Assembly: GCF_002854065.1 (NCBI RefSeq)
Contig: NZ_CP024147.1
Origin: Escherichia coli
GTDB lineage: Bacteria; Pseudomonadota; Gammaproteobacteria; Enterobacterales; Enterobacteriaceae
Length of the DNA: 64,000 bases
Strand: one strand, 5' to 3'
Positions within the stretch are counted from its first letter, which is position 1. Each line of letters begins with the position of its first letter. The notes below the pieces were generated by a model. That model was not told the origin of the DNA, did not search any database, and saw only the letters and a program-made list of their open reading frames with translations. The position numbers were made by a program, and so were the translations under genes. Below, in pieces: positions 3,071 to 63,846 of this stretch.

Positions 3071-3223
3071 CTACTTCTTCGATTCGTAAGCGAGAACTGC
3101 CTTAAACTCCATACCACGCTCTCTGATACTCAACTCACATAACGAGTCGCCTACCATGAGCGTGAATCCCAGTACTGTACAACACAGTACTATGATTGCC
3201 ACAAGGGCATATTTTGTTAGCAT
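3071..3223 (-). CDS. hokX: Hok/Gef-family membrane toxin (type I toxin-antitoxin), 50 aa
   Basis: [50 protein letters not shown]; hydrophobic helix plus SLCE...AYES motif typical of Hok; GGAGG Shine-Dalgarno (rc of 3229-3233) 6 nt upstream of ATG 3221-3223. Confidence 0.75.
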
Positions 3224-3330
3224 GTCTTGCCTCCCTGCAAAGAAGAGACTAACATCCGAATTGCTACGTTCGAACGCGAGCCTCAGGTTGATAGAAATAT
3301 CGCCTGGGGCTTTTGTCCATCTGGAACCTC
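3224..3330 (+). ncRNA. sokX: Putative Sok-type antisense RNA opposite the hok mRNA leader (coordinates approximate)
   Basis: Expected from hok/sok locus architecture; exact ends not determinable from sequence alone. Confidence 0.2.
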
Positions 3331-3430
3331 GCGAATGCTTAACGCCAGACAGCCTCAAGCACCCGACGCCATTCTATACCTGATAATTCTTCCAGCGGCG
3401 TTCACGTTTAAAATCAGGAATGCTGCTCGC

Positions 3431-39163: not shown

Positions 39164-39946
39164 TTAGGAACTTATCTCTCCATCCTGACCCGATGGCGCA
39201 CTGAACTCAACCCTTTCATTTTCAGGAAGCAGACCGCGCCAGCCAAATTGTGATAACGCCTGCATCCAGGTGTCGTCCAGGCCCGCGTGAATAGTCAGCG
39301 GCTCGCCAGTAAAAGGATGCGTCAATGACAACTGACTGGCATGCAGCATTAACCGCTGAAGACCAAAATGCTCAGCACCGCTGCGATTCTGGCGTAAATC
39401 GCCATGTTTGCTATCGCCAATAATCGGATGACGCAAATGGGCAAGATGGCGACGGAGCTGGTGCTTGCGTCCGGTTTTCGGCTCCAGTTCCACCAGGCCG
39501 TAGCGCGTGGTCGGGTAACGTCCGGTCGCTACAGGCATTTCTACGGTCGCCAGACCGCGATAATGCGTCACTGCTGGCTGCGGGCCTTTATCTTCGCGGG
39601 CAAATTTATCAGCGATTTTGTCCAGTTCTTCCACCAGTGGATAATCCAGCACCGCTTCTTCCATCAACCAGCCGCGCACAATCGCATGGTAACGTTTCTG
39701 GATTTGGTGCTGTTCAAACTGTTGTGCCAGCAGCCGTCCGGCCTCGCTGGATAATCCCATCAACAACACACCAGAAGTGGGTCGGTCCAGACGATGAGCA
39801 GTAAAAACATGCTGGCCTATCTGGTCACGCACGGTTTGCATGACCACTACTTTCTCGTCGCGATCCAGCCAGCTGCGGTGAACCAGCCAGCCGGAGGGTT
39901 TATTTACCGCAACCAGCCATTCATCCTGATAGAGTATTTCCAGCAT
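39164..39946 (-). CDS. truC: tRNA pseudouridine(65) synthase TruC, 260 aa
   Basis: ORF translation; RluA-family motifs (HRLDRPTSG). Confidence 0.92.
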
Positions 39947-40275
39947 TAGCTCGCATCATCCGCAAAAAGAGCATCCAGTTTTTCCAACTCAGCCAGAATA
40001 AGCGCGCGTTGCGGATGGTCCGTCGCCAGCGCCATTTCATAATAGGGTGCAACAGCAAAAGCGCCCGGTAACGGCTGGTTGTTATCTAACAAATCGTGCA
40101 TTCGTGGGATCAGCACCCATTGCAACCACTCCAGTGGTTCCATGGTGTCCATAAAGAACGGTTGGGTACTGTTAAATTGATGCGGCTGGGGTTCATCGTT
40201 TCGCCAGTGCTGATGTTCACGCAGTAACGCTTCAAGCGCCTGCAACTGGAGACGAACGCGGTCATGAGTGGTCAT
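39946..40275 (-). CDS. yqcC: DUF446-family protein YqcC, 109 aa
   Basis: ORF translation; stop/start overlap with truC. Confidence 0.88.
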   Translation of the reverse strand: MTTHDRVRLQLQALEALLREHQHWRNDEPQPHQFNSTQPFFMDTMEPLEWLQWVLIPRMHDLLDNNQPLPGAFAVAPYYEMALATDHPQRALILAELEKLDALFADDAS

Positions 40276-40317
40276 AAAGCAACCTCAATAAGAAAAACTG
40301 CCGCGAAGGATAGCAGG

Positions 40318-40686
40318 AATAAAAAAAGGGAGCACTGTATTCACAGTGCTCCCGGTTCGTTTCGCAGCATTCCAGCTACATTTGTTGCTCCCTGCTCATC
40401 CTTGACAACTTTTCCTCTGGCCTTGCGGCCAATCGTTCATCCTGAACTATTGCTTCCTGCTCACACCACCCCGATGTGATACTTCATCCTGAAGTGTCCC
40501 TGGCCTTCCTGACCCACCGAATCATCCTGACCGGTTCTCATTCTCCATCCTGGAGGTGTCCTTTAACGCGTCCTGCGTCATCCTCTTCGCTTCATCCAGA
40601 AGCCTTTCCCTGAAACACCATCCTGGTGTGTCCTTCAGAAGTGTCATCATCCTGATGTTCACTTCGTTGTCTGACTCCCTGTCGAC
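40318..40686 (-). ncRNA. csrB: CsrB small RNA (CsrA-sequestering), about 369 nt
   Basis: Minus strand starts GUCGACAGGGAGUCAGACAACG..., carries well over a dozen CAGGA(U/A)G-type GGA motifs (seen as CATCCTG on plus strand), ends in hairpin plus U-run at 40321-40358. Confidence 0.92.
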
Positions 40687-40896
40687 GAAGATAGAATCGT
40701 CTTTTTCGCGAAGTCTTACAAGGCGCTTACAGACAATGCCTTAAGGAAAATTTCATATGAAAGTTAGGAATTAACAAGCAACATGTTGTTTTTAAATGAA
40801 AATAACGATTATTATCTTTTTAAGTATTCGCTTATTTCCTGGCGATCTCCTACAGAGTCTGTAAGAGATCTCTCACAACCAGATGGGGTATTTGGA

Positions 40897-41442
40897 TTAC
40901 AGAAGAGGCTTAAGTTGATTAAGGAATTCCGCAAGATTTGAGGCTAAATGCGTCCGTTTACGTGTTCCCAGCGTCTCTTTACACACTTCACCGGAGAGAT
41001 TACACACCGAGATGACCTCTAACTCTTCTTCCAGCGTCGCGATAAATAGCGTGGGTGGCAGTTTTAGCCTTTTCTGAGTCACCAGATGACCAATCAGATT
41101 TTCCTGCACCCGACGGAAGTCGTCTTCACTCCAGGTTTGCAGCAATGTCAGTTTGATATCGCCAAACTGCGCGTGCATATCCCCGGCAAACTGAGTCGTA
41201 TAAAAGGTATGAATTGTGGGTTGTATCACAATATCAAAAGCGCGTTCAACCGCGTTTACATTTTGTTCCCCGGTAAACGGCTGGGGTTGCCAGTATACGG
41301 CATCTTCAGTAGTTGAAATAATGCACGGTGAAGGAACGCCGTACAGTTCCTCACTTAACGGCCAGCTTTTATGCTCTTCATGCCACGCATCGCAGTAGCG
41401 TGCAGTAAAATCTTTCAGGGCTTGTGCGGTCAAATCGTCCAC
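40897..41442 (-). CDS. syd: SecY-interacting protein Syd, 181 aa
   Basis: [35 protein letters not shown]... Confidence 0.93.
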
Positions 41443-58857: not shown

Positions 58858-59063
58858 ACTTCCTGAGCCGGAACGAAAAGTTTTATCGGAATGCGTGTTC
58901 TGGTGAACTTTTGGCTTACGGTTGTGATGTTGTGTTGTTGTGTTTGCAATTGGTCTGCGATTCAGACCATGGTAGCAAAGCTACCTTTTTTCACTTCCTG
59001 TACATTTACCCTGTCTGTCCATAGTGATTAATGTAGCACCGCCTAATTGCGGTGCTTTTTTTT
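58858..59063 (+). ncRNA. gcvB: GcvB small RNA, about 206 nt
   Basis: ACTTCCTGAGCCGGAACGAAAAGTTTTATCGGAATGCGTGTTCTGGTGAACTTTTGG... with GU-rich TGTTGTGTTGTTGTGTTTG tract and terminator GCACCGCCTAATTGCGGTGC plus T8; divergent from gcvA. Confidence 0.92.
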
Positions 59064-62056: not shown

Positions 62057-62156
62057 TGCCTGATGCGCTACGCTTATCAGGCCTACATAACTCCTGCAAT
62101 ATTTTGGATTTGCATGATTTGTAGGCCGGATAAGGCGTTCACGCCGCATCCGGCAT
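62057..62156. repeat. Pair of REP elements (BIME-like) between tcdA and mltA
   Basis: GCCTGATGCGCTACGCTTATCAGGCCTACA and TGTAGGCCGGATAAGGCGTTCACGCCGCATCCGGCA. Confidence 0.75.
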
Positions 62157-63548: not shown

Positions 63549-63625
<77 letters not shown>

Positions 63626-63658
63626 ATTAAAATTTGATGAAGTAAAGCAGTACGGTGA

Positions 63659-63735
<77 letters not shown>

Positions 63736-63769
63736 ATCAAAATTTGATGAAGTAAAAGCAGTACGGTGA

Positions 63770-63846
<77 letters not shown>

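Follow-up and report, generated by a model that had tools for sequence, protein, structure and literature searches.

Organization of the csrB locus

The window, by which we mean the whole 64,000-nucleotide stretch of Escherichia coli DNA that was analysed, contains a 369-nt non-coding RNA gene on its minus strand, flanked by the open reading frames for Syd and YqcC, and this is an intact and typical orthologous csrB of the E. coli chromosome, a gene that is already known (Table 1). Read on the minus strand, the gene opens with GTCGACAGGGAGTCAG and closes with a stem-loop followed by TTTTTTTATT. An Rfam 15 scan of the whole window places the CsrB family (RF00018) at 40318–40677, covering model positions 1–356 of 356, with a score of 384 bits (E 1e-111) that is five times the gathering score of 71. 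The gene aligns without gaps to K-12 MG1655 b4408 (2924156–2924524), which is annotated as 'small regulatory RNA CsrB', and there are only three mismatches (99.2% identity). The original prediction of a csrB small RNA at this place, for which a covariance-model scan had been proposed as the check, thus stands with a full-length match, and the predicted length of 369 nt, the minus strand and the position between yqcC and syd are borne out by the K-12 alignment and by the flanking reading frames.

Table 1. Features of the csrB locus and of the remainder of the window. Positions are those of the window, and RNA positions are numbered along CsrB.
Feature	Position	Strand	Details
Rfam 'sok antitoxin' (RF01794) match	3208–3364	−	105 bits
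barA, sensor kinase, 918 aa	31219–33975	+	NF008318, 1624 bits; 6.3 kb from csrB
truC, downstream of csrB	39164–39946		
yqcC, 109-aa ORF, downstream of csrB	39946–40275	−	Place annotated yqcC in K-12 and RefSeq
csrB, 369-nt non-coding RNA gene	40318–40686	−	+1 = 40686, 3′ end = 40318
Intrinsic terminator	40321–40353	−	Terminator scan; 11-bp stem (7 G-C pairs) and 4-nt loop at 40328–40353, U7 at 40321–40327
GGA site 22, buried in terminator stem	40350–40352	−	
Unstructured segment GAAACGAACC	40354–40363	−	RNA nt 324–333; A327 = 40360, A331 = 40356
21 GGA motifs, presumed CsrA binding sites	40371–40678	−	RNA nt 9–316
GGA site 11, in stem of hairpin 10	40544–40546	−	
Core promoter (inferred)	40693–40721	−	−35 TTGTAA 40716–40721, 17-bp spacer, −10 GATTCT 40693–40698
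IHF-like element AAACAACATGTTG	40779–40791	−	−105 to −93; one core mismatch (T>A, 40789) to WATCARNNNNTTR
Putative UvrY~P upstream activating site	40846–40877	−	18-bp inverted repeat TGTGAGAGATCTCTTACA 40860–40877, 5 bp, then TGTAGGAGA 40846–40854
Syd, 181-aa ORF, upstream of csrB	40897–41442	−	NF003439, 287 bits
Short ES036/CssrF match	62079–62121	−	Rfam, 46.5 bits
GcvB sRNA	58858–59063	+	Rfam, 199 bits
Three tandem tRNA genes	63549–63843	+	Rfam; identical scores, ~110 bp spacing

The gene order syd – csrB – yqcC – truC is kept as in K-12, with queF beyond syd, and the offset to K-12 is 2,883,838 for the csrB position. GcvB and the three tRNA genes fit what we take to be their K-12 coordinates at this same offset. 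Strains CUWW06 and 100416 match the 25 kb surrounding csrB at 100% identity, and the presence of csrB here merely confirms an ordinary E. coli chromosome, collinear with K-12 over ~2.884–2.948 Mb. Elsewhere in the window, the RF01794 match points to a candidate chromosomal locus of the hok/sok type.

A megablast search of 5426 complete E. coli genomes matched csrB in 5425 of them at 95–100% identity, with a median of one copy per genome. One genome of the 5426 is without any csrB match, and one match lies on a plasmid-typed record. A PLSDB search gave no evidence of a plasmid-borne, mobile csrB: all seven matches are non-mobilizable, in records of either 4.8–5.4 Mb or 0.57–0.73 Mb, and these 'plasmid' records are probably mislabelled chromosomes or chromosome fragments. 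Records of E. coli in RefSeq that were annotated with PGAP leave csrB unannotated ('none' in every listed record), whereas the K-12 reference annotates it.

CsrB and CsrC, which have GGA hairpins in common, are placed by Rfam in a single clan (CL00106), and this resemblance would allow the RNA to be another Csr/Rsm sponge of the clan, either CsrC-like or a divergent paralogue, instead of the csrB orthologue. However, competition within the clan leaves CsrB as the top family at full length, and the assignment to csrB agrees with the length, with the 22 GGA sites, with the flanking syd and yqcC, with the identity to b4408 and with the single copy per genome. We therefore give another clan member almost no credence and treat the gene as the csrB orthologue throughout.

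The GGA motif array

CsrB contains 22 GGA, 14 AGGA, 9 CAGGA, 9 GGATG and 6 CAGGATG motifs; the GGA count is the same as in K-12 csrB, and the dense array of GGA and CAGGAUG-like motifs that had been predicted is present. The counts of the four longer motifs were reached by none of 2000 dinucleotide-preserving shuffles, and the bare GGA count of 22 was reached by 14 of the 2000. When 369-nt windows are slid along both strands of the 64 kb, csrB is the single outlier both for GGA (22, with the next best at 14) and for AGGA (14, with the next best at 6 and a mean of about 0.9). Published work credits CsrB with 22 potential CsrA sites, spaced on average ~12 nt apart, and describes CsrA dimers as bridging sites that are not adjacent (PMC3856055).

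The predicted minimum free energy (MFE) structure of csrB has a value of −119.9 kcal/mol (z = −4.46), and none of 100 shuffled sequences was equally stable. Ten of the 22 GGA motifs lie in hairpin loops of 3–5 nt in this structure, and nine are in other, largely unpaired stretches; the remainder are site 11, which is in the stem of a neighbouring hairpin, site 22 in the terminator stem, and site 3, which is about half paired. The mean unpaired probability is at least 0.68 for 19 of the 22 sites, and roughly 18–20 of them are predicted by the folding model to be accessible.

Conservation of the hairpins

Homologs from other species were retrieved by a conserved 16-mer and sorted from chance matches by blastn. 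The 16-mer scan of contigs returned 120 loci, of which ~45 are csrB-like, and the others have no csrB match at E≤1e-5. Twenty-seven full-length sequences were aligned with MAFFT, with a mean column identity of 79%. They represent about ten genera of the Enterobacteriaceae, along with several MAGs and unclassified members of the family; sequences from Pantoea, Erwinia, Hafnia and Edwardsiella, which could be aligned only in part, were not used for covariation. The structure tested has 71 pairs, made up of the Rfam consensus hairpins and three local MFE hairpins mapped onto the alignment.

Standard pairing is found in 93.6% of the 1876 pair cells, and this falls to 34–52% when the 3′ partners are slid by 1–3 columns. 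Compensatory changes, with both sides of the pair altered, are seen at 25 of the 71 pairs, compared with 5–13 in the slid versions, and none of 500 shuffles reached the observed measures of pairing and covariation. An independent run of RNAalifold on the same alignment recovered most of the hairpins, with 21 covarying pairs. The GGA motifs are also well kept: at 12 of the 22 sites the GGA occupies identical alignment columns across all 27 homologs, and for 21 of the 22 a GGA lies no more than a few columns away in 24 or more of the 27. Hairpin covariation and the conservation of GGA columns together indicate that the stems have drifted with compensation and that the loop GGAs have been retained, a pattern that one would expect of a CsrA sponge.

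Three other features of the alignment were noted. One is the segment at RNA nt 272–301 (GGAAAAGUUGUCA.GGAUGAGCAGGGAGCA), which is almost invariant among the 27 homologs. A second is a long-range helix proposed by RNAalifold, GACAG/UUGUC, in which RNA nt 4–8 would pair with 279–283 (window 40679–40683 with 40404–40408) and close the whole GGA array. It is absent from the Rfam consensus, and covariation cannot test it because both sides are invariant in the 27 homologs. A third is an extension of hairpin 1 in the RNAalifold structure (RNA nt 22–27 with 43–48), which has 8–10 double changes and is likewise absent from the Rfam consensus.

The same alignment bears on the possibility that the region is a small-protein gene. 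Open reading frames of 45–71 codons are present on both strands, and AGGA is similar to the core of the Shine-Dalgarno sequence, such that the AGGA motifs could be read as ribosome-binding sites serving, for example, a 46-codon GTG-initiated frame on the csrB strand at 40522–40662. This frame is the longest in the sense direction, but its start codon is lost in 14 of the 27 homologs, and outside Escherichia and Citrobacter stops or frameshifts interrupt it. Moreover, 167 of 201 pairwise indels (83%) are not multiples of three, and substitutions in csrB preserve base pairing instead. The reading frame is thus not conserved among the 27 homologs, and we reject the coding explanation, whose probability we consider negligible, in favour of a non-coding csrB.

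Terminator and RNase E segment

An intrinsic terminator had also been predicted and was located at the 3′ end of the gene, where the stem runs directly into a tract of seven U residues (Table 1). All ten pairs of the Rfam terminator stem are 100% paired in the 27 homologs, two of them with compensatory changes. Immediately 5′ of it is the unstructured segment GAAACGAACC. In published work the RNase E 'necessary cleavage site' is an unstructured segment just 5′ of the terminator that is cut mainly at A327 and A331; CsrA on adjacent GGA sites blocks this cleavage, and CsrD overcomes the block (PMC5027483). Both A327 and A331 show little or no variation among the 27 homologs.

Promoter and upstream region

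A sigma-70 consensus scan of 40000–41200 did not identify a strong promoter, because the hexamers TTGTAA and GATTCT match the sigma-70 consensus weakly, at only 7 of 12 positions. The core promoter in Table 1 was positioned by reference to the published +1 and to hexamers that are conserved, and its assignment is accordingly a putative one; comparison of 21 upstream regions shows conservation of TTGTAAGA (at −35) and of GATTCTA (at −12 to −6). The weak match fits what would be expected of an activator-dependent promoter.

Further upstream is an exact match to the 18-bp inverted repeat TGTGAGAGATCTCTTACA, for which 0.01 occurrences are expected by chance. Its centre is at −183/−182 relative to 40686, and the UvrY~P site of E. 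coli csrB has been reported with the same position and sequence, with a conserved TGTAGGAGA 5 bp downstream (PMC4682653). The choice of 40686 as the start site is supported by the inverted repeat, since it stands at the published distance. Of the 21 upstream regions, 18 have the exact 18-mer, which begins between −190 and −193, and Trabulsiella, Cedecea and Mangrovibacter have near-matches to it at the same aligned position.

Between the inverted repeat and the core promoter is an IHF-like element, AAACAACATGTTG, with a single core mismatch to WATCARNNNNTTR. The corresponding K-12 element, AATCAAAATGTTG, is an exact consensus match, whereas a scan for the exact IHF consensus upstream of csrB in the window found nothing. 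A putative IHF site has been described between two UvrY crosslink sites, and csrB reaches its optimal expression only with IHF (PMC4682653). The element in the window would correspond to that putative site.

Alleles and strain variation

The three differences from K-12 within the RNA are of separate kinds. First, a C>A change at nt 52 converts CAGGAC to AAGGAC with the GGA kept. Second, an A>U change at nt 307 alters a linker base and could add a U·G pair below the hairpin with site 21. Third, a G>A change at nt 340 (40347) converts a G·U pair of the terminator to A-U. The promoter region has five substitutions relative to K-12, and all of these are at −125 to −81 (40811, 40789, 40785, 40778 and 40767).

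The number of GGA motifs had been suggested to vary between strains, and we did not find this to be so: all of the 11 distinct E. coli alleles that were read (the window, K-12 and nine others, the latter with 1–5 substitutions relative to the window) have 22. Twelve csrB positions are polymorphic among the E. coli alleles read, and only one of these touches a GGA (G189A), where the motif is shifted by one base. The count is likewise 22 in Escherichia sp. E1V33, in E. albertii and in five Citrobacter, and it ranges from 20 to 27 in other genera. That the number stays at 22 in the sampled Escherichia and Citrobacter despite sequence drift argues for selection on the number of sites.

One instance of a disrupted gene was seen in E. 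coli MARGA_3 (NZ_CM170101.1, 1649–3278), in which csrB is split after nt 94 by a gap of 1258 bp that holds an annotated IS3-family transposase, and nt 92–94 are duplicated at the disruption. About 22 genomes have an interrupted syd–yqcC intergenic region, compared with two that are interrupted in the csrB body. Natural loss of csrB is through insertion-sequence disruption and not through erosion of motifs, and it is the IHF region of the promoter and these rare disruptions, not the binding sites, that account for most of the natural variation.

The sequence differences raise the question of whether this csrB has an altered level or half-life, through the −103 T>A change in the IHF core, the four nearby promoter SNPs, the C52A change by GGA site 3, or the rare U307. 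The five promoter differences all fall together in an AT-rich stretch, the presumed place of DNA bending by IHF, and optimal csrB expression needs IHF (PMC4682653); furthermore, the exact RNA allele of the window, with U307, is rare (34 of 5425 genomes), and U307 adjoins the RNase E cleavage segment. However, IHF sites are degenerate, and the −103 A (40789) is common to O157:H7, E. coli B, EcPF7 and AF56 and is also found in Kosakonia and Pluralibacter. As judged from its distribution in these sequences, −103 A is a common, natural and tolerated state. The window allele also keeps every GGA, every stem and every cleavage residue. An altered level or half-life is therefore unlikely, although if it were true then the set-point of the Csr network would vary from one E. 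coli lineage to another.

A model for CsrB regulation

Within the Csr global regulatory network CsrB holds a central place, and it is a textbook example of an RNA that acts as a protein sponge. Every sequence-testable defining feature of the CsrB family and of its E. coli orthologue was found at the locus, and we found no evidence that contradicts the csrB assignment. We put the probability at about 98% that the joint account is correct, in which an intact, orthologous csrB is combined with a mechanism of sequestration, promoter activation and decay that is drawn from the literature.

Under this account, the sensor kinase BarA, whose gene is also in the window, would phosphorylate UvrY, and UvrY~P would bind the inverted repeat ~183 bp upstream of the csrB start. 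Helped by IHF-mediated bending, UvrY~P would then activate the weak sigma-70 promoter, with transcription starting at 40686. The 369-nt transcript is predicted to fold into short hairpins and linkers that show about 18–20 accessible GGA motifs, and CsrA dimers would bind these in pairs, such that each CsrB could keep many CsrA dimers off their mRNA targets. Titration by CsrB would ease the control that CsrA exerts over glycogen metabolism, biofilm, motility and similar functions. We infer the binding and sequestration of CsrA by the csrB of the window from its near-identity to the characterised K-12 RNA.

Removal of CsrB would follow from RNase E cutting the single-stranded GAAACGAACC (at nt 327/331) before the terminator. 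CsrA bound at neighbouring GGA sites would block this cut, and CsrD would overcome the block. Activation by UvrY and IHF, as well as decay through CsrD and RNase E, are taken from the literature on the near-identical K-12 RNA and presumably apply to the RNA described here.

Comparison with known systems

The closest comparison is with csrB of K-12, and the two genes agree in length (369 nt), strand and neighbours. Both have 22 GGA motifs in matching places, and they share the terminator, the RNase E segment and a UvrY inverted repeat centred on −183/−182. The gene in the window departs from that of K-12 by the three RNA substitutions (C52A, A307U and G340A) and by the five promoter substitutions at −125 to −81. 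More distant comparisons are with CsrC of E. coli (RF00084) and with RsmX, RsmY and RsmZ of Pseudomonas. It is established that these RNAs likewise have GGA motifs in hairpin loops and sequester CsrA or RsmA, and that they have promoters dependent on BarA/UvrY (GacS/GacA) with an upstream palindrome (PMC4682653). However, CsrC and RsmX/Y/Z are shorter than csrB, have fewer sites, and are at other loci.
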